A stretch of 64,000 bases of DNA from Candidatus Marinacidobacterales bacterium (lineage in GTDB: Bacteria; Acidobacteriota; Vicinamibacteria; Marinacidobacterales; SMYC01), in NCBI GenBank assembly GCA_965237955.1, contig OZ250169.1, positions 4,640,001 through 4,704,000 of the forward strand, written 5' to 3'. The notes below the pieces were generated by a model that was not told the DNA's origin, did not search any database, and was given only the letters and a program-made list of their open reading frames with translations. Positions 27,196-49,458 of this stretch are shown here, piece after piece (the stretch's first letter is position 1; each line of letters starts with the position of its first letter). Made by a program: the position numbers and the translations under genes.

Positions 27196-27215
27196 GATTT
27201 TCCGAGCGGCTCACT

Positions 27216-27751
27216 GCCTTGGTGCACAACTCCGATAGAGGCCGAGAGCTCGCTTGGCCCCGACTCCCATCATCCGATCATCTCGCTATCAGGCATCCCG
27301 AGCGCCGTCATCGTGTTGAGAATCTTGCACCCGATCCTTGCCTCGACTCTCTGTGCCGCCAACCCTCTCGCTCGCATCGCTGAGCCCACGATAGCCTTGT
27401 AGCGATGGAACGTTGTCTCGACTTTGCTCCGTTTGCTGTAGCCCGATTCTGTGTGCCACTTTCGTTTGCCGAGCCGAGCTTGTGCTGCAATGTTGCGATT
27501 GCGCTGTCGGCTGCTCGCCGGCCCCGATGCGAGCTGGGCGCCCTTGCGCGGCGGTATCAGCACCCTCGGCGAGCAATGAGCGCTGTGATTCTCGATTGCC
27601 TCATAGACGCCGCCGGCGTCGTATGCGGTGTCAGCTCTGGCCGATGAGATGGGACTGTCGATCTGTCCGACAAGCGATGCAACCCGCGATGAATCGCGGG
27701 CTCTTTTGCTCGTCAGCTCGCCGGCGACGACTTCGCCACTCTGCTCGTCGA
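27216..27751 (-). mobile_element. IS5-family (IS903-like) truncated copy
   Basis: Appears identical to 42549..43084, including the IR GCCTTGGTGCACAACTC. Confidence 0.88.
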
Positions 27752-30414: not shown

Positions 30415-30827
30415 GCTGTGCCTTCTATTTATTCATCCGCGCGCCCCGAACTTGATTAGTCTCCGGTCTGCCGGCACCATGTCGGCATGATTTCGTCGTT
30501 GGTTCCCGCTCTCATCTCTGCCTTCAAGGCTTGTCGCGAGCTGGCTCTCGAGAATGTCGCTCTTCGGCAGCAGCTCGCCGTCCTCCGTCGTTCGGTGAAA
30601 CGGGCGCGGCTCTCGAATGTCGACCGTGGGTTTTGGGTGCTGTTGCGCAGAATCTGGACTGACTGGGAGAGCGTCCTCGTCATCGTGAAACCTGAGACGG
30701 TCGTCCGCTGGCACCGTTGTGGGTTCAGACGATATTGGGCGTGGAAGAGTCGACGGCGTAGGCCCGGACGACCAGGCGTCGCTCCCGAAATACGTGAGCT
30801 GATACGGAACATGAGCAGGGCCAACCC
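30415..30827 (+). mobile_element. 5' fragment of an rve-integrase IS-like element (second subfamily)
   Basis: 'LALENVALRQQL...VKPETVVRWHR...PGRP...RANP' cut by the repeat at 30828; its end sequence recurs at 38498..38559. Confidence 0.75.
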
Positions 30828-30881
30828 CGTCCTGTGCCAAAACTCGGCCCTTTTGAAATAGACCACAAATCAGCAGCTTAG
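30828..30881 (+). repeat. Terminal repeat copy 1 (CGTCCTGTGCCAAAACTCGGCCC...AATCAGCAGCTTAG)
   Basis: Near-identical to six other copies. Confidence 0.92.
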
Positions 30882-31090
30882 ACGCCCTTGGAATCCGCGC
30901 AGAATCGAGGGTATTTCGCGCCGCAGGGCTGGCTTCCGACCCCAGAGCTGCGGGTGGCGAGCGACAGGCCCACCGGGGGTGCGCACGGCTGGCTCAAATC
31001 GGCTGCGGGGCGAGCTACGGGCAGTGAACTGCGCACCCGGAAGTCCCTCATTAGACTGGACTTTATCGAGCACAAGAGCGAACGTTCGGT

Positions 31091-31523
31091 GATGCCGCAG
31101 GATACAGGGGTTGGCCGGAACGTCGTTTTGGACGGTTTGGACTTCGCCAGCTTACGGCGGGTCTGGGAGCAGACCTTTGGGGCTGCTCCTCCAAGCTCGC
31201 TCTCGCGTGTTTTCCTGCGCCGCGTTCTCTTGCACGAACGCCAGTGCCGGACCCATGGCGGGCTTTCGGCCGCAACCCGGCGCGCTCTGGCCGCCATGGC
31301 GAACGAGACACCAAGCTCCGGCGCTCCCGCAGGGTCCGTTTCTGCCGGCACCCATCTCGTCCGCGAGTGGAATGGCCGGACCTACCAGGTCGAGGTAATC
31401 GACAACGGCTATCGGTTCGATGGCAAAACCTATCCGTCCCTCACTACCATCGCAAAGCGAATCACCGGCACCCACTGGCCTGGACCACGCTTTTTCGGTC
31501 TGACGCCCAAGCGCAAGGCCTAA
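31091..31523 (+). CDS. DUF2924-type protein
   Basis: 'GTHLVREWNG...YPSLTTIAKRITGTHWPGPRFFGL', directly upstream of a recombinase. Confidence 0.8.
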
Positions 31524-31524
31524 C

Positions 31525-32916
31525 ATGAAGAAGATCCGCTGTGCCATCTATACGCGAAAGAGTGCGGAAGAGGGTCTCGAACAGGAGTTCAACTCCCTCG
31601 ATGCGCAGCGAGAAGCCTGCGCCGCGTATGTCGCGAGCCAGAAAGCGGAGGGCTGGGTGCTGCTGCCAACCGTCTACGAGGACGCGGGGCTCTCGGGAGG
31701 AACCCTGGAGCGCCCGGGCCTGCAGCGCTTGCTCGCCGACATCGACGCCGGTCTCGTCGACCAGATTGTGGTCTACAAGGTCGACCGACTGACCCGTTCC
31801 CTCTCCGACTTTGCAAAGCTCGTCGAACGGCTCGAGGCGGCCGGCGCGGTTTTCGTCTCGGTGACTCAGTCCTTCAACACCGCGACCAGCATGGGACGAC
31901 TGACGCTGCATATGCTGCTGTCCTTCGCACAATTCGAACGCGAGGTCACGGCCGAGCGGATCCGCGATAAGGACGCTGCCTCCAAGCGCAAGGGACTACG
32001 GATGGGCGGCCGCGTACCGCTAGGCTATGAGAAGGACGGGCGCACGCTGCGCATCAACGAGGCTGAGGCCGAAACGGTCCGGACGCTCTATGCGCTGTAC
32101 CGAAAGCACGAAACGCTCCGGCAGGTGAAGGCCGAGGCGGACCGCCTGAGACTGCGTACCAAGCAACGCTTCACCGCGGATGGAACCCGAACGGGCGGGC
32201 TGCCGTTCCGTCGCGGACACCTCCACTGCCTGCTGACCAATCCTCTCTACGCCGGCCGCATCCGGCACCAGAGGCGTGTCTACGAGGGCCAGCATCCATC
32301 GATCATTGCTCCGGAGCTCTGGGACGCGGTCCAGGCGCAGCTGCAGGCAGGGGCTGCCAAACCAAGGAGACGCACGACGAAGGGCCGTGCAGCCCGTTCC
32401 CCACTGGCAGGCAAGCTCTTCGACGAGACCGGGGACCGGCTGACGCCGAGCCACACCAAAAAGAAAAACGGGCAACGGCTCCGCTACTACGTCTCCCGGC
32501 GCCTCATCCAGCACAGTGGCCAAAAGGACCTCTCCGGCTGGCGACTGCCCGCCCCGATGCTGGAACAGACCGTCGTGCATCTCATCCGACAGCATGTGGA
32601 TGCCACGACCTTCTCGGCCTCGTTGATCCACACTCCGACGATGCAAGAGCTCGCCTCGGTGCGTCGCTTTTTAGACGGGCTGTGTTCCGGCAGTAATAAT
32701 GATAGTGCCTCGGCAGCCCCCCTGCTCCGTCTTATCCGGCGGGTCGACATCAGCCCCGGCTCTGTGTCCATCCTGCTCGACCGCAATGCGTTCGCTGCTT
32801 GCCTCTCTATGGGACCCGAACGCATTCGCGAGGATGCACTCCGCATCCTCGCACCGTTCCGCTTGCGTCGACGCGGCGTCGAGACCAAGCTCGTTCTGGG
32901 CAACCCCACGAACTGA
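31525..32916 (+). CDS. Large serine recombinase, 3'-truncated by an IS3 end
   Basis: 'AIYTRKS', 'VYKVDRLTRS', 'FAQFERE'; the stop codon is supplied by the IS3 terminal TGA at 32914. Confidence 0.9.
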   Translation: MKKIRCAIYTRKSAEEGLEQEFNSLDAQREACAAYVASQKAEGWVLLPTVYEDAGLSGGTLERPGLQRLLADIDAGLVDQIVVYKVDRLTRSLSDFAKLVERLEAAGAVFVSVTQSFNTATSMGRLTLHMLLSFAQFEREVTAERIRDKDAASKRKGLRMGGRVPLGYEKDGRTLRINEAEAETVRTLYALYRKHETLRQVKAEADRLRLRTKQRFTADGTRTGGLPFRRGHLHCLLTNPLYAGRIRHQRRVYEGQHPSIIAPELWDAVQAQLQAGAAKPRRRTTKGRAARSPLAGKLFDETGDRLTPSHTKKKNGQRLRYYVSRRLIQHSGQKDLSGWRLPAPMLEQTVVHLIRQHVDATTFSASLIHTPTMQELASVRRFLDGLCSGSNNDSASAAPLLRLIRRVDISPGSVSILLDRNAFAACLSMGPERIREDALRILAPFRLRRRGVETKLVLGNPTN

Positions 32917-33065
32917 ACCGCCCCGGGTTTTCCGGAGACTGTTTTAGTTGAGTCTCGCCATCTCTAGCGAGCCTTCCTGCGACCGATAGTAGTTCATCTC
33001 GTACTCGACCGGAGAGACATTTCCGATCGGCTCCAAGAGTCGTTGCGTGTTGTACCAATGGACCC
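32914..33065 (-). mobile_element. IS3-family right-end fragment
   Basis: TGAACCGCCCCGGGTTTTCCGGAGAC end plus the orfB C-terminal codons; matches 38569.. and 40907..41058. Confidence 0.85.
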
Positions 33066-33124
33066 CGTCCTGTGCCAAAACTCGGCCCTTTTGAAATAGA
33101 CCATAAATCAGCAGCTTAGTGTCT
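33066..33124 (+). repeat. Terminal repeat copy 2
   Basis: Direct match to the repeat family. Confidence 0.92.
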
Positions 33125-33203
33125 ATGGCGCGCTCCCGTGAACGGCTTGCCGGGTTGCTACGTTTCTACCATAGGGAAGCCGCATGAGTATTTTGACCTT
33201 ACG

Positions 33204-33276
33204 GGCACTCCCACAGGAAACGGGGAGAAACAGATAGGCCGCGCCTACGGAGCACCGTGCCAGCCCTCGACCCTAC
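33204..33276 (+). ncRNA. Group II intron 3'-end fragment (domain VI)
   Basis: Nearly identical to the reverse complement of 36539..36611; ends ...CCCTCGACCCTAC. Confidence 0.75.
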
Positions 33277-33384
33277 CGCGATGGAGCCTGACCAGAAGCC
33301 TGCTGGGCCGGACAGTTCCCCCGCTGATGCCCAGGGTGCCGACTATAATAGTGATGAAGGAGCCTCATCGGTGGGCCTTTTATC

Positions 33385-33460
33385 GGCCCGGTCGCAAACA
33401 CAGACACTAAGCTGCTGATTTATGGTCTATTTCGAAAGGGTCGAGTTTTGGCACAGGACG
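33385..33460 (-). repeat. Terminal repeat copy 3
   Basis: Inverted copy ending GAGTTTTGGCACAGGACG. Confidence 0.9.
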
Positions 33461-33552
33461 GGGTCAGGTCAGCTGAAAGACAGGGTCTGCAAATTGCTGG
33501 CGGAAGAGCCCGGTTTAACGGACCGGAAGACCACCACCGCACTCGGCACATC

Positions 33553-35775
33553 GTGACCGGTGCGGCCAGGCGACAACAGAAAGCGCCAAACCAGGAGGTT
33601 CTGGCTGGCCTCGTCGAGCGGGTGACGTTCCACAACGCCGATAATGGATTCTGCGTTCTGCGCATCAAGGCCCGGGGTCATCGCGATCTTGTGACGGTCG
33701 CCGGGCACGCCGCCATCGTTTCGGCCGGGGAGTGGGTCACGGCAGCGGGGGAATGGGTCAACGATCGCACCCACGGCCAGCAATTCAAGGCGGGCTTCAT
33801 GCGCACCTCGGAGCCATCGTCGATCGACGGCATCGAGAAATACCTTGGCTCCGGCATGATCCACGGCATCGGGCCGGTCTACGCTAGGAAGATGGTCAAG
33901 GCGTTTGGCGAAAAGGTATTCGATATCATCGAGGCCGAGCCGGAACGACTGCGCGAGGTGACCGGCATCGGCCGTGTGCGTGCCAAACGCATCACCGACG
34001 CCTGGGCGGAACAGAAGATCGTTCGCGAGATCATGGTGTTCCTGCACAGCCATGGCATCGGCACGGCGCGCGCGGTGCGGATCTACAAGACCTACGGCGT
34101 GGATGCCGTTCAGGTCATGACCGAGAACCCGTACCGCCTTGCACGAGATATTCGCGGCATCGGGTTCAAGACCGCCGACATGATCGCCATGAAGCTCGGC
34201 ATCGAGAAAACAGCCATGATCCGGGTTCGCGCGGGGATTTCTCATGCGCTCACCGAGGCGATGGACGATGGTCATTGCGGCCTGCCGGCCGAAGAGCTTG
34301 CACCGCTCGCCGTCGAATTATTGGAAGTGTCAAAGGAGTTGGTTCAAGACGCGCTGGACCTCGAACTGGCAGAAGGCACCGTCGTCGCTGCGGCGGTTGC
34401 CGGAACTCCCTGTATATTCCTTGGCGGCCTCTACCGTGCCGAACGGGTGATCGCCGAGAGGGTTCTCCGGATTACGGGCGGCAAGCTTCCTTGGCCGGAT
34501 ATCGATGCCGGCAAGGCGCTACCCTGGGTCGAGGGGAAGACCGGTCTGTCGCTGGCGGCAAGCCAGGCCGAGGCGGTTCGCCTAGCCCTGACCTCCAAGG
34601 CATTGGTCATCACCGGCGGGCCGGGCGTGGGCAAAACGACCATCGTCAACGCCATCCTGCGCATCCTGGCCGCCAAGGGCGTGACCCTGCTGCTCTGCGC
34701 CCCAACCGGCCGCGCCGCCAAGCGGATGACCGAGGCCACCGGGTTCGAGGCGAAAACGATCCACCGGCTACTCGAAGTCGATCCCAAGGGCGGTGGGTTC
34801 AAGCGCAACGGCAACAACCCTCTCGATTGCGGCCTGCTGGTCGTTGACGAGACCTCGATGGTGGACGTCATGCTGATGCAGGCCTTGCTGAAGGCGGTCC
34901 CCGACACTGCCGCGCTACTGATCGTGGGAGATATCGACCAACTGCCCTCGGTCGGTCCGGGCCAGGTACTGGCCAGCATCATCGCCTCCGGTGCCGTCTC
35001 GGTCGTGCGGCTGACCGAGGTTTTCCGTCAGGCCGCGCGAAGCCGGATCGTCACCAGCGCGCACGGGATCAACCGGGGTTCCATTCCCAATCTTTCGAAG
35101 CCCGAGGGCGACAGCGACTTCTACTTCGTGCAGGCGGACAATCCGGAAACCGCGGTGCCGATGATCATCGAATTGGTGAAGACGCGCATCCCAAGGCGCT
35201 TCGGGCTCGATCCGATCCGCGACATCCAGGTACTGTGTCCGATGAACCGCGGCGGCGTCGGCGCCCGCTCGCTCAACATCGAGCTGCAGACCGCCCTCAA
35301 TCCGGCCGGAGAGCGCAAGGTCGAGCGCTTCGGCTGGACCTTCGCGCCCGGCGACAAGGTGATGCAGATCGAAAACGATTATGACAAGGAGGTTTATAAC
35401 GGTGACATCGGCTATATCGACGATGTCGATCCCGAAGTCGGCGAGCTGACCGCGCATGTCGACGGGCGCGCCGTCGCCTATGGCTTCGGCGAGCTTGACA
35501 CGCTGGTTCCGGCATACGCTGCAACCATTCACAAGAGCCAGGGTTCGGAGTATCCCGCCGTCGTCATCCCCGTTCTGACCCAGCACTACGTTATGTTGCA
35601 GCGGAACCTGCTCTACACCGGCGTGACACGCGGCAAACGGCTGGTTGTGCTGGTCGGCCAGAAGAAGGCTGTGGCCATCGCCGTGCGCAATGTCTCGGGA
35701 CGGCGGCGGTGGTCGAAACTGGATGAATGGCTCGGCGATGCGGGAAACCGGCTTGCTCTCTCTTCCGGCAGCTGA
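33553..35775 (+). CDS. recD2: ATP-dependent RecD-like DNA helicase
   Basis: 'VERVTFHN', HhH 'GIG' motifs, Walker A 'GGPGVGKT', 'DETSM', 'HKSQGSE'. Confidence 0.92.
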   Translation: MTGAARRQQKAPNQEVLAGLVERVTFHNADNGFCVLRIKARGHRDLVTVAGHAAIVSAGEWVTAAGEWVNDRTHGQQFKAGFMRTSEPSSIDGIEKYLGSGMIHGIGPVYARKMVKAFGEKVFDIIEAEPERLREVTGIGRVRAKRITDAWAEQKIVREIMVFLHSHGIGTARAVRIYKTYGVDAVQVMTENPYRLARDIRGIGFKTADMIAMKLGIEKTAMIRVRAGISHALTEAMDDGHCGLPAEELAPLAVELLEVSKELVQDALDLELAEGTVVAAAVAGTPCIFLGGLYRAERVIAERVLRITGGKLPWPDIDAGKALPWVEGKTGLSLAASQAEAVRLALTSKALVITGGPGVGKTTIVNAILRILAAKGVTLLLCAPTGRAAKRMTEATGFEAKTIHRLLEVDPKGGGFKRNGNNPLDCGLLVVDETSMVDVMLMQALLKAVPDTAALLIVGDIDQLPSVGPGQVLASIIASGAVSVVRLTEVFRQAARSRIVTSAHGINRGSIPNLSKPEGDSDFYFVQADNPETAVPMIIELVKTRIPRRFGLDPIRDIQVLCPMNRGGVGARSLNIELQTALNPAGERKVERFGWTFAPGDKVMQIENDYDKEVYNGDIGYIDDVDPEVGELTAHVDGRAVAYGFGELDTLVPAYAATIHKSQGSEYPAVVIPVLTQHYVMLQRNLLYTGVTRGKRLVVLVGQKKAVAIAVRNVSGRRRWSKLDEWLGDAGNRLALSSGS

Positions 35776-35848
35776 TCCAGGAAGTGCGGTCGCTAGCGGC
35801 GTGCGGCGGTGGTTGCCGGTGGCCCTGCTGGTGGTCAATGGATGGTAC

Positions 35849-35977
35849 TGGATCTGAAGATAGCACCCTCGGGCCAGACGATTGTAAAGCCCACGGCCCT
35901 TGGCCCGGTCGCAAACACAGACACTAAGCTGCTGATTTATGGCCTATTTCAAAAGGGCCGAGTTTTGGCACAGGACG
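35849..35977 (-). repeat. Terminal repeat copy 4 (129 bp)
   Basis: Near-identical to 40778..40906. Confidence 0.92.
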
Positions 35978-36369
35978 ACATACATTGGGATCCTTTACTG
36001 GCGGTTGCAGTCATAGGTGTGATGGCCTTGCAGGCATCGCATGCGAGAAGTGAGGTTCGAGCGAGAATTGAAGCGCAGATTCTCACCGCAGCGGAGAAGC
36101 TCAACGATGCAGAGTTGGAAGCGGAGAAAAAAGAACTGGTCTCGGATTTAATTCTCGCCGGACTCGTCGGCTGCACTTGGTGGGAGCCCAACGGCCAAGC
36201 GAGGGCGTCGGCGCTGGCAATGCTACTCGAGCAGCTGGCGGAAGGCGATTCGTCTCCGGTGTTCTTAAGAAGCAGGCTCTTTATCCTGCGCTTGTATGAC
36301 GCCCTTCCCGTGAGTCAGGCACGACAATTCTGGCGTGTGCGGAATTTGTTGCGACGGATGAAGTCGTAG
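35978..36369 (+). pseudogene. C-terminal fragment of an unknown helical protein
   Basis: Protein-like open frame with lower GC; its 5' end is cut at the repeat terminus. Confidence 0.45.
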
Positions 36370-36451
36370 TGGTGCTTCTGTCATCAGAGGTAAGGGCAGT
36401 CTGTAAGGCGGACGCCCTGGGGGTATTGTCTGGCTGCCGGTCGACCGACCT

Positions 36452-36506
36452 CGTCCTGTGCCAAAACTCGGCCCTCTTGAAATAGACCATAAATCAGCAG
36501 CTTAGT
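36452..36506 (+). repeat. Terminal repeat copy 5
   Basis: Direct match to the repeat family. Confidence 0.9.
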
Positions 36507-36538
36507 TGTGATCCGCAAAAAAGAAAATCGCGTACCCG

Positions 36539-37440
36539 GTAAGGTCGAGGGCTGGCGCGGTGCTCCGTAGGCGCGGCCTATCTGTTTCTCCCCGTTTCCT
36601 ATGGGAGTGCCTCACTAGCCGCACCGTAAGTCCGTTTCCAGCCCCCGCCACATCGCACGCAGCGTGCGGCTTTCCCGCACTACGCGCTCCTGCACACTTC
36701 CCGCGAAGGGTTATGTGACCTATCGAGCCGGGGCGTCTTTCGGCGAATCTACGAGATATCGAACTCGGTAATCTGTGAACAGTCCGACAGTCGCCTACAT
36801 CCATCGCCTGCTCCATCGCTTCCAGCCGAAACCTTGGCGCAAGAAGCGCCAAGACTTCTCGGCCTTCGCCTTGACGTATATCCTTCATCTCAGCTCCTGC
36901 AGAGTGATGGGTGATTTTGTCATCTCACCCCTGCCTCGCTTGTTGACGAAGGAGTTGTGTGCAGCAGGGCCCCTTTGCTCCACGGGCGTTGCCCCGTTTC
37001 AACGCTACTACGGACCCAGCCGCCACCGTCTCGTCTTCAACCGTTTTCCCGGGGCCTCCGGTTATGCGGTCTACCTTGCTCCGTCGATTTCTCGACGGGA
37101 CGAGGACGGCTTCTCCAGTTGCTTGGCATGTCCTTGTCACCGTGCTGTCCCTACCACCCCGCCAGAGGGATGTGCCTCATCAGATAGTCTGGCGACACAT
37201 CCCTGTTGCCTTCGTCCGACACGAGAAAACTCGGCCTCTGGGGTCTATTTTTTTGTCGGGGCCACCTATGGGTTCACTTGTGTTACGGCCCGGTGACTCG
37301 CTCACCATCCTCAAGATGGCTTTGTCAGTCAGCTTCATCCGTCTCGTTTCCTCCACGAACGTGACTCAAGCTACGGGGCGCTAACTTTTTCCCCGGTGGG
37401 ACTCTCTCCCACTGAACATGCCAGCCTTCGCTGGACGCAC
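36539..37440 (-). ncRNA. Group II intron, RT ORF internally deleted (902 nt)
   Basis: 5' GTGCG at 37440; domain V at 36655..36688; domain VI ending GACCTTAC at 36539; ORF relic 'MTKSPITLQELR*RIYVKAKAEKSWRF/LRQGFGWKRWS'. Confidence 0.88.
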
Positions 37441-37890
37441 TCGTGTCCAAAAATACAAACGAACTCTAAGACCCGCGCGCCGGGACGTCGCCGAGTTCAT
37501 CTATCATTATCATGGAGAGTGCAACCATCAAGGGCTTGGCAACACGTTTGTATTTTGGACACGACGGCATCGCTTATGAACCACTCTCATCGCAGCCTCC
37601 TTCACGTCGCACCGGCGTGGAGCCCACGAACTTGTAATCTAATAGACGCGCTCAACAATCCAAGCTGGATAGAAAACGCAATTTGGGGTACGCGCAGGAC
37701 TCCCAGCCAAACTTGACAACGGGCTCAGTCGCACCAACGTTGAGCCGACCTCTGAGCCGGTGCCATCTACAGAGACTACCGCGTTTCATTCATACGGGGT
37801 GGCCGTCAGGCCGTGAAAAACTTGACAGTACCATCCGAAACGCTCCGGCTGATGCAAGTCTTGAGTTCGTTCGTGTTTTTTGACACGACG
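37441..37890. mobile_element. Degenerate miniature rve-integrase element with inverted ends
   Basis: 37441..37472 is inverted relative to 37858..37888, with an extra end at 37545..37566; internal relic 'HYHGECNHQGLGN'. Confidence 0.6.
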
Positions 37891-37938
37891 CGCTCACTCA
37901 AACGATTGTGCGGCCGGCAGCGAAAATGTAGCGGGCGC

Positions 37939-38199
37939 CTAAGGGAGTGGACCGATCCGACCGGGAGCCTCGAAACTTCGGGCTCGCTTCCAAGCTCTCA
38001 TGAGCTCATCCTGATGTTGAGAGGCCCACTCCACAACGAGACCGGTCGCGCGAGCGGGAAGGCGGCCTGCCGTCAGCGATAGCGTCTCGATGGCAAAGAG
38101 AGCCTCGTCGGACCCGTAATACGCATGGAAATGAGGAGGGGCATGATCGTTGAAGAACATCCGCACGACGATGCCATAAAACCGGCTTAGCTCAGGCAT
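37939..38199 (-). CDS. DUF4160-type protein (putative TA component)
   Basis: 'MPELSRFYGIVVRMFFNDHAPPHFHAYY...EWA'. Confidence 0.85.
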   Translation of the reverse strand: MPELSRFYGIVVRMFFNDHAPPHFHAYYGSDEALFAIETLSLTAGRLPARATGLVVEWASQHQDELMRAWKRARSFEAPGRIGPLP

Positions 38200-38476
38200 C
38201 TACATCGGCGACCGATATTCGAGGAAAAACCTCCTCCGGCTTCTTTCCGGTTAGCTCGAGGTAGATGCTGTCCGGGCATAGCTCGATGTCTTTGTTCCAC
38301 GCGATGCTTCCGTGGGGGCTCACGTGGACGGTCTCGAAGAATGCAGGATCACTCCACGACGAGAATATGCCCTTGCCGACGAAGGGAATGAGGTCCACCT
38401 CGCCTTCGGTGCCATCCTCGTAACGCACCCAAATCTTGTACTTGGGCAACGCTCGAACTTCGCGAACCTTCAACAT
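38192..38476 (-). CDS. DUF2442-type protein (putative TA component)
   Basis: 'YEDGTEGEVDL...F...IAW..DIELCPDSIY'. Confidence 0.82.
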   Translation of the reverse strand: MLKVREVRALPKYKIWVRYEDGTEGEVDLIPFVGKGIFSSWSDPAFFETVHVSPHGSIAWNKDIELCPDSIYLELTGKKPEEVFPRISVADVDA

Positions 38477-38497
38477 GCCCACATTGTAGCACCTCCG

Positions 38498-38559
38498 GCT
38501 GTGCCTTCTATATATTCATCCACGCGCACCGAACTTGATCAGTCTCCGGTCTGCCGGCA
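38498..38559 (+). repeat. Second copy of the element end seen at 30415..30476
   Basis: GCTGTGCCTTCTATATATTCATCC...CTGCCGGCA. Confidence 0.8.
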
Positions 38560-38568
38560 GAAACAGAC

Positions 38569-39072
38569 TGAACCGCCCTGGGTTTTCCGGAGACTGTTTT
38601 AGTTGAGTCTCGCCATCTCTAGCGAGCCTTCCTGCGACCGATAGTAGTTCATCTCGTACTCGACCGGGGGGACATTTCCGATCGGCTCCAAGAGTCGTTG
38701 CGTGTTGTACCAATGCACCCACTCGAGGGTGGCGAACTCGACGTCCTCAGGACCACGCCAGGGCCCGCGTCGACGGATCACCTCGGTCTTGTAGAGGCCG
38801 ATGATGGATTCAGCCAAAGCGTTATCGTAAGAGTCGCCTCGGCTGCCGACGGACGGCTCAACACCCGCCTCGGCGAGCCGCTCGGTGTAACGGGTCGAGA
38901 CGTACTGCACGCCGCGATCGCTGTGATGCACCAATGGATCTTCTGGGTTTAGTCGGCGCTCGTGCAGCGCCTGCTCCAACGCATCGAGAGCGATGCCGGC
39001 AGTCAACGATGTCGTCGCTCGCCAACCGACGATGAGTCGAGCGAAGATGTCGATGACGAAGGCGACATACAC
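38569..39072 (-). mobile_element. IS3-family transposase 3' fragment with right end
   Basis: 'VYVAFVID', 'HHSDRGVQY', 'DSYDNALAE', 'YKTE'. Confidence 0.88.
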
Positions 39073-39440
39073 GCCAGAAGTCGACATCAGAGGCGGACAG
39101 CAAGCTCGCCATCGTCTCGTCTGCGTCGAAGAGTTCGACACCGCGCATAGCATGGAGACAAATTCGCAGTCCAACTCGCCCGGGAAGGCTCTTCAAGCCA
39201 GTTACAAGGCTCCTCGTACGATCTCGATCTAGAATCGCGGCCTGAGGCAAAGAGTCCATCAGCACTCGAACTAAGAAATTAACACCTCCGTGGCCTTCGT
39301 TCTGAACGTGCCCTTCAATAGACGGCACTTCGGAATCGTTGCAGTCATAGTCGTCTGCAATCAGGTCAAGTTCCGATTGCAGTTCAAGAGCGGACTGCAA
39401 TTCAGCGATTGCTAAGTCGAGAATCCGTCCGGCGCGATCC
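39073..39440 (-). pseudogene. Internal fragment of a large protein, possibly SIR2/Dsr-like
   Basis: 'DSEVPSIEGHVQN..GVNFLVRVLMD'; bounded on both sides by mobile ends. Confidence 0.3.
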
Positions 39441-40906
39441 CGTCCTGTGCCAAAACTCGGCCCTTTTGAAATAGACCATAAATCAGCAACTTAGTGTCTG
39501 TGTTTGAAATAGACCATAAATCAGCAACTTAGTGTCTGTGTTTGCGACTGGACCAAGGGCCGTGGGCTTTACAATCGTCTTGGGCGGGCGGGTCGTCACC
39601 ATGCAGATGACCACCTAGTCGAGAGCGAATATCGAAGCGTGTTCCTGAAGCGGTTTCCACGCTACGCCGGTCGAGCCCGCCGAGGGGCTACCGTCGCCGG
39701 CGACCATCTACGCGGCACGGCAGTAGTAGTTGAGAATGCCCCCAAGTCGCTCTCGCGACACGATGGGGCCAGCGTCATTCGCGCTTGCCGGCAGAGGTGT
39801 GAGGAGCTCGTTGCCGAGACCTTGGTGGTTCCGTTCTGTGTGATAGTGCACTACGTATTCGGTTACTGCTGTGCGCAGGTGTCGCTCACTGAGAGGTACG
39901 AAGCGGTCGAGACACTCTCGACGTATGGAGAGAACGAATCTTTCCGCATATGCGTTCAGATTCGGACTATTAGCGGGAAGGCGAAGGGGCTTCACGCCTG
40001 AATCTCTCAACAGCCCACGTACCGCCTCGGTGAATAGCGGGTCTCGGTCGTGGATGAGGTATCGCTTGCCAAGGAGGAAACCATCCCACATGTCAGTGAG
40101 GTTTCTTGCCACCTGCTTCATCCACTCCCCGTTGGGGTCCGACGTTATCCCACCGATGCACACGCAGCGAGTGGCGATATCGATGACAAACAGGACATGG
40201 TAGCGGACGAGCCCGAACGGGTTCACAACCTCGACGGTGAACAGGTCTGTCGCAGCGATGGCACCCCAATGAGCCTTGATGAAGGTGCTCCACGACATGC
40301 TCCTGCCCCGCTCCGGCGCAGGAGCAATACCGTGCTCGGCGAGGATCCTCTTGATAGTGTTGCGTCCGAGTTCATGTCCTAGGTTCTTGAGTGCGCCTCG
40401 CAGGCGCGTATATCCCCACGTCGGGTTCTCCCGCGCCACGCGCACAATGAGCTCACGGATGTCCTTCGCCGTCGGAGGTCGGCCTGGACTCCGGTTCTTG
40501 CTGCCATCGTACTTGGCTGCGATGAGGTGGCGGTACCAGCGCAGAAGCGTAGCGGGTGTGGCAACGGACGCAATCTGGGCCAGCGCCTCGCGGCCCAAAG
40601 CCTGGGCCTTGACCGCGAGCCTGCGCCGGTCGTCGTCCGAGAGACTGAGACGCTTGCCCCGAAGCCCGGCTCGGAGCACACGGTTCTCCTCTTGCAGGTA
40701 GTCGATCACATCCTGCTGCTGGCGGTTGACCCAGCCAGCTAGAACGAGCAGTAGGAATTGCACGTGGTACGTCATCATGGATCTGAAGATAACACCCTCG
40801 GGCCAGACGATTGTAAAGCCTACGGCCCTTGGCCCCGGCGCAAACACAGACACTAAGCTGCTGATTTATGGCCTATTTCAAAAGGGCCGAGTTTTGGCAC
40901 AGGACG
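39441..40906 (-). mobile_element. Complete ~1.47-kb rve-integrase IS-like element with ~100-bp terminal inverted repeats (copies 6 and 7)
   Basis: Repeat at 39441..39580 (with an internal tandem duplication) is inverted to the repeat ending at 40906; single integrase ORF inside. Confidence 0.8.
39708..40778 (-). CDS. Integrase core (rve, DDE) transposase
   Basis: 'ENPTWGY', 'ATDLFTVE', 'LIHDRDPLF', 'NAYAERFV', 'ERNHQG'. Confidence 0.9.
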
Positions 40907-41058
40907 GGGTGCATTGGTACAACACGCAACGACTCTTGGAGCCGATCGGAAATGTCGCCCCCGTCGAGTACGAGATGAACTACTATCGGTCGCAGGAAGG
41001 CTCGCTAGAGATGGCGAGACTCAACTAAAACAGTCTCCGGAAAACCCGGGGCGGTTCA
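40907..41058 (+). mobile_element. IS3-family right-end fragment
   Basis: Inverted copy of 32914..33065. Confidence 0.85.
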
Positions 41059-42349: not shown

Positions 42350-42548
42350 AGCGGGTACTGGAGGCGATCGAGGTCGTGCTCGAGGAAGAAGTCAACCAAG
42401 CGCTGGGGTGTGGTAGCTACGAGCGTGCGGAAGACCGCCGTGGATATCGCAACGGAGCCGAAACCCGTCGCGTGACGACGTCGGTGGGAACTCGCGAGCT
42501 CCGGGTGCCACGAGCCCGCGTGCGAGACGAGGAAACGGGAGAAACGAT
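42350..42548 (+). mobile_element. IS256-family transposase N-terminal fragment
   Basis: 'LEEEVNQALG..YER...GYRNG...TSVG..ELRVPR', cut by IS5. Confidence 0.75.
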
Positions 42549-43634
42549 GCCTTGGTGCACAACTCCGATAGAGGCCGAGAGCTCGCTTGGCCCCGACTCC
42601 CATCATCCGATCATCTCGCTATCAGGCATCCCGAGCGCCGTCATCGTGTTGAGAATCTTGCACCCGATCCTTGCCTCGACTCTCTGTGCCGCCAACCCTC
42701 TCGCTCGCATCGCTGAGCCCACGATAGCCTTGTAGCGATGGAACGTTGTCTCGACTTTGCTCCGTTTGCTGTAGCCCGATTCTGTGTGCCACTTTCGTTT
42801 GCCGAGCCGAGCTTGTGCTGCAATGTTGCGATTGCGCTGTCGGCTGCTCGCCGGCCCCGATGCGAGCTGGGCGCCCTTGCGCGGCGGTATCAGCACCCTC
42901 GGCGAGCAATGAGCGCTGTGATTCTCGATTGCCTCATAGACGCCGCCGGCGTCGTATGCGGTGTCAGCTCTGGCCGATGAGATGGGACTGTCGATCTGTC
43001 CGACAAGCGATGCAACCCGCGATGAATCGCGGGCTCTTTTGCTCGTCAGCTCGCCGGCGACGACTTCGCCACTCTGCTCGTCGACACACAGATGGAGCTT
43101 GCGATAGTCCCTGCTCTTTGGTGCTCTGCGCAGCTGGCCGGCGTGGACAGCGAGACCGCTGCTGTCGATCAAGATGTGCAACGGCGTCTTCTGCTTGTCT
43201 TGGTAAGAAGGGGACCTTACCCAGCTTCGCCTTGCGCCTCGAGATCGTGGTGTGATCGGGCACATCATTGTCTAGCTTCATCAGAGCGAACAACGATCGC
43301 AGCAATCCCTCGCTCTGCCTAGATGACAGATGAAACACCATGCCCAGGGTGACAGCCGTCTCGATGGCGTGGTTCGAGTACTTGCGTTGACGGCCCGGTT
43401 TCCTCCTCCTTGGCCGGGGCGCGTCCCAGTTCACAAGCTTGCCGGCGGTGAGCGAGATCCAGACGGTCAGGCTCCCACGGTTGCGTAGACCCGCCTCATA
43501 TTCACGCCAATTCCTCACGCGATAGGCCTTCTTCACATACTTCCGCTGAGTGCGTTTGAAAATGCTCATGGGGAACCTCGAATCCGTGAGTAAAGGACAA
43601 TTGTGGCCCGAGATCGCGAGTTGTGCACCAAGGC
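42549..43634 (-). mobile_element. IS5-family (IS903-like) element, transposase frameshifted near 43205
   Basis: Perfect 17-bp IRs GCCTTGGTGCACAACTC; 'YRVRNWREYEAGLRNRGSLTVW', 'PDHTTISRR', 'IDSSGL', 'YSKRSKVET'. Confidence 0.9.
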
Positions 43635-43635
43635 A

Positions 43636-44933: not shown

Positions 44934-44971
44934 AAGCGCGTCGTGGTGGCCCACCTGGAGCAATTGCCTTA

Positions 44972-46897
44972 GGGCCGGCGACAAAATAAGTTCCCGTTTT
45001 CAAGACGGTCGGATGGTGTAGTTCCATTTGGGTAGAGTCTGGTCCTTTGTAACGGAAAGCGCCTGCATCCGCTCGTCAGTGATTTTGACGCCCTTCGGAT
45101 AACGACGCCGGATAAGGTGTGCGCGTACTCGCAAACCGGAAGAGGTGGTGGTCGTGCGGATGTATTTGAGGATGGTTTCGTAGCTGTCGAGAGGCCTGCC
45201 CGCCCAGTTCTTGCTGATCTCGCTGAACAGACGGTGCTCCACTGGATTCCACTTGGATGTACCGGACGGATAGTGGGCTATGGTGATAGCGATGTCGTGG
45301 CGATTGCAAATCCGCGTTTGAAGCCCGTGCTTCCAACCCCGACACCGATAGCCATTGCTGCCCCCGGCGTCTGCCAATATCGCGAGGTCACGGGCTGCAG
45401 GATAGCGTCGCCGTCCTTCCGTTCGCCACCACTTCTCGATGGCATTCACGGCGAAGTCCGGGGTGTTGTACGAGGTACCAATGAACACTGTCCCGCGGTT
45501 CGCGAGCAGATCGTAGACGCCGTAGGGGATTGCGATGCCGTTCGATTCGGAACGGAAGTCATGGTCTTTGACGAGAGTCGGCTCGCGGTTCCAGGCCTGC
45601 CCGCCGTTTTTGAATAATCCCACCAGCTCCCGTTTCTTCGTGTCTACGCTGATGATGGGATGACCAGCTGCGGCAAAACGCTCGCGCAGTTCGGCGATAC
45701 ACGCGAATTGGGTATCGCGATCTTCGGACGTGGCACCGCACAGCTTCTTGTGGTTCACCCGCAACGAGAAGCCGAGCTGTTTGAGCAGTCGACCGACGGT
45801 TTTGCTGCTGACGTTCACACCGAGGCTTCTTAGCTCGCAAGCAATCTTGTCGGTGGTCCGCCGCGTCCATTTCACTCCCGTCATCGGATCGCCCGCGGTG
45901 TCGTGCTTCATGAGTTCTTCGATCTTGGCGATGACTTCTGGCGTTTTTTTTGCACGGCGCGCCGTCCGCCACCCTTTCGCCGAACTCCGTCGAGCTCAAC
46001 ATCTCTCATTAGTAATTCCCTACGACCTCTGGCTACCGTGCTCGGATCCATCCCGAGCAGTTCGGCAATCTGTTGGTCGCCACCGTGACCGAGCTTCATG
46101 GCCTCGACTCCCGCGTAGAGACGGCGCTGCTTTTCATCGAGCAGGCTGTAGAAAAGAACGATCGCAGCCTTCAACTCCACGGGGAGCACGCGGACTCCCC
46201 CGACCCAGCCCAACGTGGAAGGTGACGCCTCATGTACCTGGCGGGCCGAGAGCTGTTGCTTGCGCGTGCTCACATCGGTGGCCAGATACAGATATCGGCC
46301 GAACACCTGCTCGCGCGCCAATCTTTTCTCTCGGACCAGTTTCAACAGAGGAGCCTTGACGTCAACCTGCACCTCGTCCTCGAGCTCGTCGACGTAGTAG
46401 CCTGCCTCACAGGCCGCGACCAACGCTTTTACCGTCGCAAGCAACGTCCCGTACTTCGAGAACCACACTGAGCGCAACGACCAAAGACCTTTTCGATCGA
46501 ACTGGGCGATCTCGTCCAACGTGTAGTAGCTACCACGGTGGGAGTAGCTTGTCCGATACGCCAACTCATTGAGCTTTCGGAAGACGGTCGAGTCCACATC
46601 GGTACCCAACACTGCCTTCAAATCATCGAGGGTAGCTATTTTGTGCTTCCTCAACAGGCGGTCGAGATCTTCAGACTGATAGCTCGTAGGTCTCATAATA
46701 GGAGAAGTGCTCCTTGATAGGCGTAATCCTCCCTAAAATGAGGACCGTTCGTCAAACACGCGCTGGTTGCTGAAGATCTACAAATGTTCCGTTTCTAGGG
46801 AGCTTGCCAGGCTCTCGTGATGCCAGACGACATCGCGATCACGACCTGAAACAGGAAGAGTGTGCTCAAAACCAGACAGTTATTTTGTCGGCGGCCC
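44972..46897 (-). mobile_element. ISAzo13-family element (two ORFs, 45908..46696 and 45000..~45950)
   Basis: IRs GGGCCG(G/C)CGACAAAATAA; 'ISVDTKKRE', 'ADAGGSN', 'SKWNPVEHRLFS'; A8 run at the ORF overlap; TA on both flanks. Confidence 0.9.
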
Positions 46898-49458
46898 TAA
46901 GTGCGGACGTTGAATAAGCCGTACAACGCGGCGATGCTGAAGAGCACGTTCGGGGCCCACGCCGCCATGAACGGCGGCAGCATTGCCGTTTCACCCATGA
47001 ACGCGAAGATACGCGTGGTCACGTAGTAGGAAAGACCGATCGCGATCGCGATGCCGATCCCGTAGAGGGCACCCTTCTTCCCTGGTGCGAACGAGAACGG
47101 CACGCCGATGAGCACCGTGACCATCGCTGCGAGCGGGAACGAGAACTTGGCTTGCCGGGCCACTTCGAGCGGAACCACGTCGTAGCCGGCCTGCTTGAGA
47201 TCCTCTACATAGCGAGTCAGCTCGAGGTAGGTCATCTGATTGGAGCGTTTTTGCTCCTTGACGAAATAGGACGGGGGCTCCATGTCGTGCACCGGAAGCG
47301 CCTCGAAGCGCTCGATCTGCCGACCTTCGGCGAAGTTGCGCTTCCACCCTTTGCTGAACACCCACGCGCCGATGTCGGACTCCCACTTCGCCTCCTCGGT
47401 GTAAAACCGCTCGGTGATCTCGAAGGGATTCGTAGCGTATTTGTAGACGGCGAGCCCGCTGAACTTCCGTGAGTTGGGATCGTAGTAGGCGTAGTTGTAG
47501 AGCTCCTGGCTCTCTCCCATCATCCACTTGCGGTTCAAAACGTTGTGCGTTTGGACCGGACGCTTTTTGATCTCGTCCCGAAGCTCGGCGGCGCGCCGGT
47601 TGGCGTAGGGAAGGAGGTATTCCTGAAGCGCGAAACAGCCCGCGCTCACGACCACACCCATGAGGACCACGGGCACCGCGAGTCGATAGAGGCTGATGCC
47701 GCCGGCCTTCGCTGCTGTCAGCTCACTCGTCTTCGTCAAAATCGCGAAGCAAACCAGCGTCGCCATGAGCGTTGCGAGCGGGAGCATATGAAATAAGATC
47801 TGCGGCTGGGCGAACGCGAGGTACTCGAGAACGACTTTCCCTTGAATGTTGTGCTCGAACGCGTCCGCGATCACATCGATGAGGAGCCCGAGCATGTACA
47901 CGCTCACGAGCGCCGCGAGGATGAGAAGAAAAAAGCGGGTGAACTCCCGGCTGATGTAGCGGTCGAGCGTGTTGGGAAAGCGCAGGCTCATACGGAGCAA
48001 GATCACGAAGCAAACCAACGTTGCCACGAGCGTTGCGAGCGGGAGCATGTGAAAGAAGATCTGCAGTAGGGCGAACGCGAAGTTAACGAGAACGACTTTC
48101 CCTTGAAAGTTGTTCTTGAACGCGTCCGCGATCACATAGATGAGGAGCCCGCTCACGAGCGCGGCGAGGATGAGAAGAAAAAAGCGGGTGAACTCCCGGG
48201 TAATGTAGCGGTCGAGCGTGTTGGGAAAGCGCAGGCTCATGCGAGGGATGCGGAGCAGGATCACGGTGCGGCTCCGGGGGTGCTGTGAGCTCTTTCGCAA
48301 CGAACGGAGCTTCGAACCGAGCAGGGGCCACAATGTGTCGACGCCGAACAAACCTCGCTGGGATTCGCGGGCGGCGCGAACCAGAAGTGCTATCGCCCCT
48401 GCACCAAGGACGATGTTCGGAGTCCACATACCCCAAAACGGCGACAAGCGTTCGCCGATTGCCATGTTCTCGCCAACATCGATGAGGACGTAGTAAATGA
48501 AAATGACGGCGAGGCTCATGACGAAGCCCCAGGAGCGGCCGTCGCGCCGGTTGCGAATCCCGAGAGCGAGTCCTAAAACTCCGAACACGAAGCACGCGAA
48601 TGGGATGGAAAACTTCTTGTGGATCTCGGTCAAGTAGACGGGAAGCTCGGTCTCCCGATAGGACGTACGAAGCTCGGCAAGGCTGAGCTCGCGCGCGCCT
48701 CGCGGCACGTTGATGTCTTCGGGCGGAAAGAACGTTTCCGTCGGAAGCGGCAGGAAGATCTCCTTCGATAGCTGGCGTTGATACTCCGCGGGCCGGCGGT
48801 GCGAGACTTGATGGAGCTCCGCGTCCCGCAAGTAAAACATGACCGTCCGCGCCTCCGGGTCGATGAGGAGCCGTCCCTGGTCGGCGAACGTCACCCGCGG
48901 GGATTGGGGCTCGGACAAATCAGCAAGAATGACGTTTTCCCAATAGTCCGAGTCTGTCGGTGTATCGAGAACGAGGAACATCAGATTCGGGAAGAGGCGA
49001 TCGTAGAACACCCGCGGTCGTACTTCCGTCCCGGCGTGAGACGTCAACACCTTGAAGAACAGCTGGCGCACCCGCTGATTCGAGTCCGGTAAAACGTTGA
49101 TGATGAGGTAGGAGGTCGCGCCCCACGCGAGGGTGGCGGCGACGAGGATTGGTGTGAGCAAGCGATAGAGGCTCACGCCGCTCGCGCGCATCGCGATGAT
49201 CTCGCTATCGGCGGCGAGGCGCCCGAGCGCTATCAGGACGCCCAGCAGAAACCCCATCGGGATCGTCAGGCACAGGACACTGGGCAACAAGTTCAACAGG
49301 ATGCCGAGCGTGTCCGAGAGCGACGCGGACTGGGTGACCAGGCGCTGCGCGAAACGCAAGATCTCGTTCAGGAGAATGACGAACGTGAAGACGCAGATTC
49401 CGAGGATGAAGCTCGGGATGATTTCCCTGAAGACGTAGCGGTCGAGGATCCGCATCAT
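46897..49458 (-). CDS. lptF/lptG: Fused LPS export permease LptF-LptG with internal ~83-aa duplication
   Basis: Two LptF/G units ('LDRY..RE', 'DSEIIAMRASGVS', 'SELTAAKAGGIS'). Confidence 0.88.
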   Translation of the reverse strand: MMRILDRYVFREIIPSFILGICVFTFVILLNEILRFAQRLVTQSASLSDTLGILLNLLPSVLCLTIPMGFLLGVLIALGRLAADSEIIAMRASGVSLYRLLTPILVAATLAWGATSYLIINVLPDSNQRVRQLFFKVLTSHAGTEVRPRVFYDRLFPNLMFLVLDTPTDSDYWENVILADLSEPQSPRVTFADQGRLLIDPEARTVMFYLRDAELHQVSHRRPAEYQRQLSKEIFLPLPTETFFPPEDINVPRGARELSLAELRTSYRETELPVYLTEIHKKFSIPFACFVFGVLGLALGIRNRRDGRSWGFVMSLAVIFIYYVLIDVGENMAIGERLSPFWGMWTPNIVLGAGAIALLVRAARESQRGLFGVDTLWPLLGSKLRSLRKSSQHPRSRTVILLRIPRMSLRFPNTLDRYITREFTRFFLLILAALVSGLLIYVIADAFKNNFQGKVVLVNFAFALLQIFFHMLPLATLVATLVCFVILLRMSLRFPNTLDRYISREFTRFFLLILAALVSVYMLGLLIDVIADAFEHNIQGKVVLEYLAFAQPQILFHMLPLATLMATLVCFAILTKTSELTAAKAGGISLYRLAVPVVLMGVVVSAGCFALQEYLLPYANRRAAELRDEIKKRPVQTHNVLNRKWMMGESQELYNYAYYDPNSRKFSGLAVYKYATNPFEITERFYTEEAKWESDIGAWVFSKGWKRNFAEGRQIERFEALPVHDMEPPSYFVKEQKRSNQMTYLELTRYVEDLKQAGYDVVPLEVARQAKFSFPLAAMVTVLIGVPFSFAPGKKGALYGIGIAIAIGLSYYVTTRIFAFMGETAMLPPFMAAWAPNVLFSIAALYGLFNVRT

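Follow-up and report, generated by a model that had tools for sequence, protein, structure and literature searches.

A one-sided target motif at the ends of an IS481/IS3-like insertion sequence in a Candidatus Marinacidobacterales genome

The seven ends and the intact element

The window analysed here is a stretch of 64,000 nucleotides from a Candidatus Marinacidobacterales bacterium (assembly GCA_965237955.1, contig OZ250169.1, positions 4,640,001 to 4,704,000) and forms part of a single-contig genome of 8.13 Mb. Between positions 30828 and 40906 it holds seven copies of one transposon-like end, and the last two of these bound an intact insertion sequence (39441..40906, minus strand) which, by its sequence, is an unclassified IS481/IS3-like DDE element. 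The target motif of these ends is one-sided, which is the main result of the analysis.

The first-pass annotation had placed the ends at 30828(+), 33066(+), 33460(-), 35977(-), 36452(+), 39441(+) and 40906(-), and every coordinate and strand proved correct. All seven begin with CGTCCTGTGCC, and the nucleotides immediately outside are, as had been read, ACCC at 30828, 33066, 33460 and 40906, ATCC at 39441, ACCT at 36452 and ATGT at 35977. A box resembling the IHF consensus, noted near position 40-53, is present in seven of seven ends at inner positions 41-53. The inner length had been put at 54-140 bp; it does vary, but likeness to the end of the intact element, when measured, extends over 54 bp at 30828, 62 bp at 33066, 78 bp at 33460, 132 bp at 35977, 55 bp at 36452 and 69 bp at 39441, and over the full length at 40906, a range of 54-132 bp or full length.

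The intact element has CGT...ACG ends and imperfect terminal inverted repeats (TIRs) of 108 bp. Its typical length is 1,428 bp, and the window copy measures 1,466 bp because of a 38-bp internal duplication in its right end. It encodes a DDE transposase of 356 aa (39708..40778, minus strand) with rve_3, HTH_32 and HTH_21 domains, in one open reading frame (ORF) with no OrfA/OrfB frameshift arrangement, and we infer this protein to be the acting enzyme. D178, D244 and E279 are invariant in 38 aligned transposase sequences and, given their D-35-E spacing, are probably the catalytic residues. The predicted fold (mean pLDDT 77, pTM 0.51) is nearest to TnsB, IstA and retroviral integrases, while a search of PDB sequences with the transposase gave no match below E 0.07. 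The best family match is the IS481 profile NF033577 (E 5e-29), at 101.7 bits against a cut-off of 224, and the IS3 profile NF033516 gives 82.9 bits against 160; a poorly classified rve-integrase family is thus an apt description, as the protein falls below both cut-offs.

Relatives of the transposase number at least 7,993 at E<=1e-20. Homologues that are 45-86% identical keep ends starting with CGT, with repeats of only ~20-25 bp, so that the long TIRs proposed as a trait of the family hold in the focal lineage and not in distant homologues, and the IHF-like box occurs in just one of 15 more distant homologues. From these comparisons, long TIRs and the IHF-like box are best read as traits of the lineage. 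Several sister elements of 45-70% identity, also with CGT ends, coexist in the genome, some of them outside the islands described below.

A search of the 8.13-Mb genome for the outer 20-mer of the end, allowing two mismatches, returned 498 matches, whereas 2 Mb of shuffled sequence returned none even at three mismatches. The CGT...ACG termini are present in 99% of the 498 ends, which are grouped in 17 clusters (here termed islands) spanning 1.79 Mb. Inward-facing pairs 1400-1500 bp apart number 26, of which 20 have an intact ORF, and the median identity among 21 compared full-length copies is 97%. A further 39 inward pairs span 400 bp or less, with mini-elements falling into classes of 134, 317/318, 329, 345 and 392/395 bp. 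Forty-nine ends are flanked by the element itself, most mapping no more than ~230 bp from its left end. The end is carried by 10 of the 31 genomes searched, its own included, in up to 476 copies; one of these genomes (G017) has two end matches, on separate contigs. Records with transposases 97-99% identical carry the label Candidatus Marinacidobacterales, and several sequencing runs containing the element are labelled as sponge metagenomes. Contigs from RNA runs also include it, although presence there cannot show expression.

This is a metagenome-assembled genome with 6.2% contamination and hundreds of repeats, the setting in which junctions at a high-copy repeat might be artefacts of assembly. 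Given the 498 ends in one genome and the 10 of 31 genomes that carry the end, mis-assembly is very unlikely as the source of the ends. Identical junctions are seen in independent assemblies, short-read contigs from other runs bridge the junction at 35848/35849 and display the empty IS3 allele, and an assembler would not generate a sequence-specific motif at the outer flank. We therefore give artefactual junctions almost no credence.

A one-sided target and missing duplications

The targets were reconstructed by mapping 60-nt flanks to uninterrupted alleles, both within this genome and in other genomes, from which 188 loci (2.66 Mb) were used. Owing to overlap among some of these loci, the 1,248 ends were collapsed to distinct flanks and pairs before counting. 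The empty-allele set comprises 422 targets; two were dropped, being ends of other elements. Across the 498 ends the flank reads G at -5 (48%), A at -4 (67%), C at -3 (64%), C at -2 (89%) and C at -1 (77%), and the logo is the same whether left ends (85) or right ends (58) are taken. Past the junction, the empty targets have C (43%) or A (31%) at +1, G at +2 (64%) and T at +3 (59%), and are flat beyond. The consensus (G)AYCC|NGY thus spans the junction; on the attacked strand it reads RCN|GGRT, similar to the junction between the element's end and its flank (ACG|GGGT). The target preference proposed in the first-pass annotation is borne out by both the flanks and the empty alleles; its one-sidedness, a new point that emerges from the empty alleles, had been missed, as had the absence of target duplications.

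Textbook DDE transposition, in which a single target receives both ends, leaves a symmetric motif and a duplication of fixed length. A two-ended insertion must mirror the flank motif at some fixed offset, where 60% of targets would be expected to show it. At offsets from -80 to +80 the best value in the 422 targets was 8.8% (at -6), and a score scan out to 280 nt on 186 targets revealed no mirror enrichment at any offset. The apparent 6-bp signal (the 8.8% mirror and 40 cross-matches) was rejected, as base composition accounts for it: shuffling columns gave 8.5% against an observed 7.7% over 977 flanks. Moreover, A or T stands at -2 in only 6 of 977 distinct flanks although +1 is A or T in 45% of targets, and therefore ends are practically never attached to the other half of the target. 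Alternative boundaries were also discarded, whether CG/CGT is taken as a duplication or the ends are shifted by up to 3 bp: the CGT of the element is absent at 341 of 422 empty targets, and the shifted tests yielded no target-site duplication (TSD).

Nor do the two flanks of an element match each other. No TSD of 4 bp or more was found in 225 distinct element pairs (60 of them full-length), and flank matches of 2-25 bp were no more frequent than in permuted pairs. For the 72 pairs with both flanks mappable, none had its flanks within 36 bp of each other; the closest lay at +37, five more were related at -326, -179, +706, +1152 and, inverted, -474, and 66 were unrelated. When elements of the same length were compared, exact duplicates having been removed, 13 comparisons shared exactly one flank and one shared both. 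Long TSDs or local duplications were entertained and set aside as isolated cases. For the elements at C1:2845959, 3660277 and 7944559, a second copy of the left flank lies beyond the right end, at a distance of 203, 326 and 1,433 bp respectively, and these repeats are possibly long duplications from independent end joining.

Low-copy homologues give the same picture. A TSD of 3 bp or more is absent from 22 homologue rows, one of them a mis-called focal copy and another having its left end mis-called; a further 14 loci, in which two ends could not be called, stand outside the 22. On a Streptomyces plasmid, six pairs of 37%-identical relatives, with GACCC-like flanks and ends that start with TG, likewise have no TSD of 3 bp or more. 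A clean empty site for the island of the window was sought in relatives and abandoned, the flanking genes being themselves shared island DNA, and for the single copy in genome G161 a homologue of only one flank was found among the 31 genomes, so that no empty site was recovered.

Two control elements from the same genome bear on whether duplications had been made and then lost. With the same scripts, an IS3 element retained TSDs of 3-4 bp in 11 of 25 copies and mapped at d=-3 in 4 of 6 cases. An IS903-like element kept a TSD in none of 79 intact copies, and scrambling alone can therefore erase such footprints in these islands. On that precedent, the focal element might have undergone ordinary concerted IS481-like insertion, after which adjacent deletions, replicative intramolecular transposition and recombination between copies wiped out its short duplication, and known causes of TSD loss are indeed described in PMC11708052 and PMC7986276. 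However, erasure swaps flanks yet leaves a symmetric logo and partner halves behind: the IS903-like control still displays a symmetric 9-bp logo and seven cross-matched partner 9-mers, against none in a shifted control, whereas the focal element has neither a symmetric logo nor an excess of cross-matched TSDs. Since its low-copy homologues also lack TSDs, erased ordinary insertion is already disfavoured, and we regard it as improbable.

The asymmetry extends to a more distant rve family with TGTGCC ends (TGTGCCTTC), 30% identical and represented in the same islands by 107 ends in the genome. Its targets (147) have a one-sided motif of their own, GSY|NCT, and none of 23 pairs has a TSD of 4 bp or more. 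A logo attempted for a sister family failed, as the search pattern caught eight ends only.

Proposed independent end joining and its rivals

We think it somewhat probable that each end of the element is transferred to a target independently, one at a time, and that host replication or junction processing likely completes the event. The transposase would nick one end and join that end to a single strand of the target at RCN|GGRT, a context that may be recognised for its likeness to the junction ACG|GGGT of the element, and the host would then finish the event by replication or by processing the junction. In each event the end would gain a new flank, and the other half of the target would stay unattached to any end. 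Through repeated events, adjacent deletions, duplications and inversions would arise, orphan ends and mini-elements would stack up, and DNA lying inside an end would be carried along, with ~1.8 Mb of islands scrambled in the process. We infer the single-strand transfer and its route of resolution; targeted cointegration by IS26 and targeted insertion by IS911 are described as precedents for single-end transfer (PMC10433875, PMC7986276).

The nearest rival is that both ends act in one complex but locate their motifs separately, a variable distance apart, with the result that a variable stretch of target is replaced or duplicated. A one-sided logo is likewise expected in that case, five of the six related-flank pairs are colinear (+37, +706, +1152, -179 and -326), and the arrival of whole elements with two good flanks is explained directly. 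Yet the flanks are unrelated in 66 of the 72 mappable pairs and inverted in one more, mirror enrichment is lacking out to 280 nt, and single flanks differ between copies. Variable-distance pairing is for these reasons unlikely in our judgement.

A different enzyme, for example the serine recombinase linked to DUF2924, could instead recombine the end with look-alike sites and so swap the flanks. The target does resemble the end junction, and ~50 ends head a recombinase module, in clusters of 33 and 15. On the other hand, in distant taxa, too, these ends enclose an rve gene as its terminal repeats and show a like flank bias (the recombinase was not looked for there), reciprocal products were not found, and the one-sided motif of the TGTGCC-ended family, which is a different one, does not match that family's own tip. 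We consider the action of another enzyme very improbable.

Several observations weigh against independent end joining. A reciprocal scar was not found within 15 kb of the ends; two other searches for such scars were rejected as too noisy and confounded by the ends of other elements. An end-to-end circle junction was absent from 276 outward pairs, the closest being 24 bp apart, and from the contigs of four runs, although contigs drop rare forms. The series of adjacent deletions that might be expected showed no excess (111/1855 against a background of 7%), and first entry into a new genome and the rise in copy number lack a direct explanation in the model. Paired insertion with deletion accounts equally well for the pair at +37 and for the slight enrichment of mirror sites at +6 (5.2% against 2.6%), and shared single flanks can also arise by reuse of hot spots. 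Missing TSDs, finally, prove little by themselves in islands so heavily scrambled by other insertion sequences (ISs) that the IS903-like element has lost its own in 79 of 79 copies.

How does independent end joining compare with known systems? The element shares with IS481 (NF033577) a single-ORF rve-type DDE transposase with HTH domains, a similar size and TIRs, but differs in its score (101.7 against a cut-off of 224), its CGT...ACG ends, its lack of a TSD and its one-sided target. Prokaryotic IS481 members have TGT...ACA termini. TGT termini are shown for IS481EU in PMC10045372, which gives IS481 TSDs as 2-15 bp, mostly 6. With IS3/IS911 the D-35-E core is held in common, and the pathway of those elements is described as including single-end strand transfer, with host processing of branched intermediates proposed (PMC7986276); the focal element differs in having one ORF, a score of 82.9 against 160 and no TSD of 3-5 bp, in that no abutted end junction was found for it, and in that its target is a short motif and not an IS end. 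The element thus behaves like an IS481/IS3-type DDE element but fails IS481 on score, termini and TSD. Elements of the IS91/ISCR type combine a fixed end with passenger DNA of variable length, a short target motif and no TSD. They do so, however, with an HUH rolling-circle enzyme and unlike ends, whereas the focal enzyme is of the RNase H-fold DDE type and acts on inverted repeats, both ends behaving alike. IS26 gathers IS copies and passenger DNA into clusters that lack flanking repeats, and its targeted route is said to need transposase at one end only (PMC10433875). The focal element resembles IS6/IS26 in these clusters and in one-end action; the transposase groups are unrelated, insertion of IS26 into a new site produces a TSD of 8 bp and its one-end route links one IS copy to another, whereas every focal junction with non-IS DNA is one-sided, with no symmetric target or shared-out TSD. 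A literature search found no paper on the element family or its motif; most subscription journals and ISfinder lay outside its coverage.

An extension that we put forward tentatively, and to which we would grant slightly less than an even chance, is that the whole family of relatives counted above consists of DDE enzymes that never carry out concerted two-ended insertion, each end being an independent sequence-directed flank-swapping site, and that in this way islands of megabase size arise and genes pass from one sponge symbiont to another, unrelated one, with no target duplication left behind. If every junction of the family is indeed one-sided, the DDE reaction involved would have a different geometry. 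This would also explain why such common genes are poorly classified and escape IS finders that rely on TSDs, and would provide a mechanism for the scrambled islands, which here amount to ~1.8 Mb and carry passenger genes that are 96-99% identical between sponge symbionts of different genera and families. The system is readily testable, as the autonomous element is small, mini-elements of 134-395 bp occur naturally and the 7-bp motif is defined.

Cargo modules and neighbouring elements

The inward-facing pairs of ends enclose the recombinase, an intron piece, recD2, a toxin-antitoxin (TA) pair and the intact integrase, as the first-pass annotation had laid out. As mobile units the pairs fare unevenly: 33066-33460, 33066-35977 and 39441-40906 recur whole elsewhere, whereas for 30828-33460 and 36452-40906 there is no second copy with a coverage of 80% or more. 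Cargo-carrying units, which had also been proposed, are accordingly upheld for the non-autonomous mini-element and the recD2 unit but not for the recombinase module, the large intron or the TA pair, and the ends do not form an orderly series of nested cassettes.

End 1 (30828..30881, plus strand, 54 bp, with 21 empty alleles) is joined at AACCC|TCT inside a different rve transposase gene, a 5' fragment of the more distant TGTGCCTTC-ended element (30417..30827, plus strand) which it truncates; a second end of that kind lies at 38500. End 1 heads the DUF2924-recombinase module, whose DUF2924 gene and large serine recombinase (31092..32913, plus strand) are fixed to an end at the 5' side only. 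The recombinase is 553 aa long in another copy and is interrupted by an IS3 in the window. There are 25 other copies of the module in the genome and 35 in the fetched loci, nearly all starting at an end, with a variable shared length and no fixed closing end; as many copies are cut by other ISs, variable length alone is no proof of one-ended capture. Dozens of copies of the module occur in several symbiont genomes, and mentions of DUF2924 in the literature concern Wolbachia.

Two terminal fragments of IS3, at 32914..33065 (plus strand) and 40907..41058 (minus strand), are cut at the same hot spot, ACCC|ACT. The first has 22 empty alleles and 16 filled junctions with the same flank, and the second has 44 empty alleles. 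One arm of a 215-bp inverted repeat consists of 32914-33065 and end 2, and the other includes 40907-41058; an inversion between these IS3-plus-end repeats would account for the arrangement in genome G013 relative to that in the window.

Ends 2 and 3 form a non-autonomous mini-element of 395 bp (33066..33460), which holds a scrap of group II intron domain VI (33204-33278) and has six further copies in the genome and five in the fetched loci. Beside it lies a recD2 helicase passenger (33461..35848, plus strand; ORF 33448-35775), which scores above the cut-off of TIGR01448, and end 4 (35849..35977, minus strand), a piece of ~130 bp of the left end of the element, closes the unit. The entire unit of 33066-35977 (mini-element, recD2 and left-end piece) recurs in G013 at 98.6%; its left flank there is unchanged but its right flank is another, and in G008 and G015 the left flanks differ. 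The junction between recD2 and the right end of the mini-element lies 273 bp deeper into recD2 in G008, at ACCC|ACT. Both the mini-element and the 33066-35977 unit therefore have the properties of a composite, that is, the same cargo between two fixed ends with changed flanks.

End 5 (36452..36506, plus strand, 55 bp) is an orphan. Close to it, at 36537..37470, is the end of a sister CGT-ended element, split by a group II intron (36539-37440, minus strand) that sits two bases inside it: CG stands at 36537-36538 and the end resumes at 37441. The intron, of 902 nt, is internally deleted with both termini intact, and its two other copies, making three in the genome, lie in the same sister-end context. 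The TA-like pair, DUF4160 (DhiT-like)/DUF2442 (37939..38482, minus strand), is single-copy and shows no sign of movement with these ends.

Other mobile elements and a repeat array lie elsewhere in the window. An IS5/IS903-like element of 1,087 bp occupies 42548-43635, with a fragment at 27215-27751 and 263 ends genome-wide; its seven partner halves lie on other copies, up to 2.8 Mb apart, which points to frequent replicative inversions. An ISAzo13-family element of 1,934 bp (44968-46901) inserts at CT(T/A)AG and has 21 inward pairs genome-wide. At 1716-2814, seven degenerate tandem repeats of 165 bp probably belong to a gene for a repeat protein.

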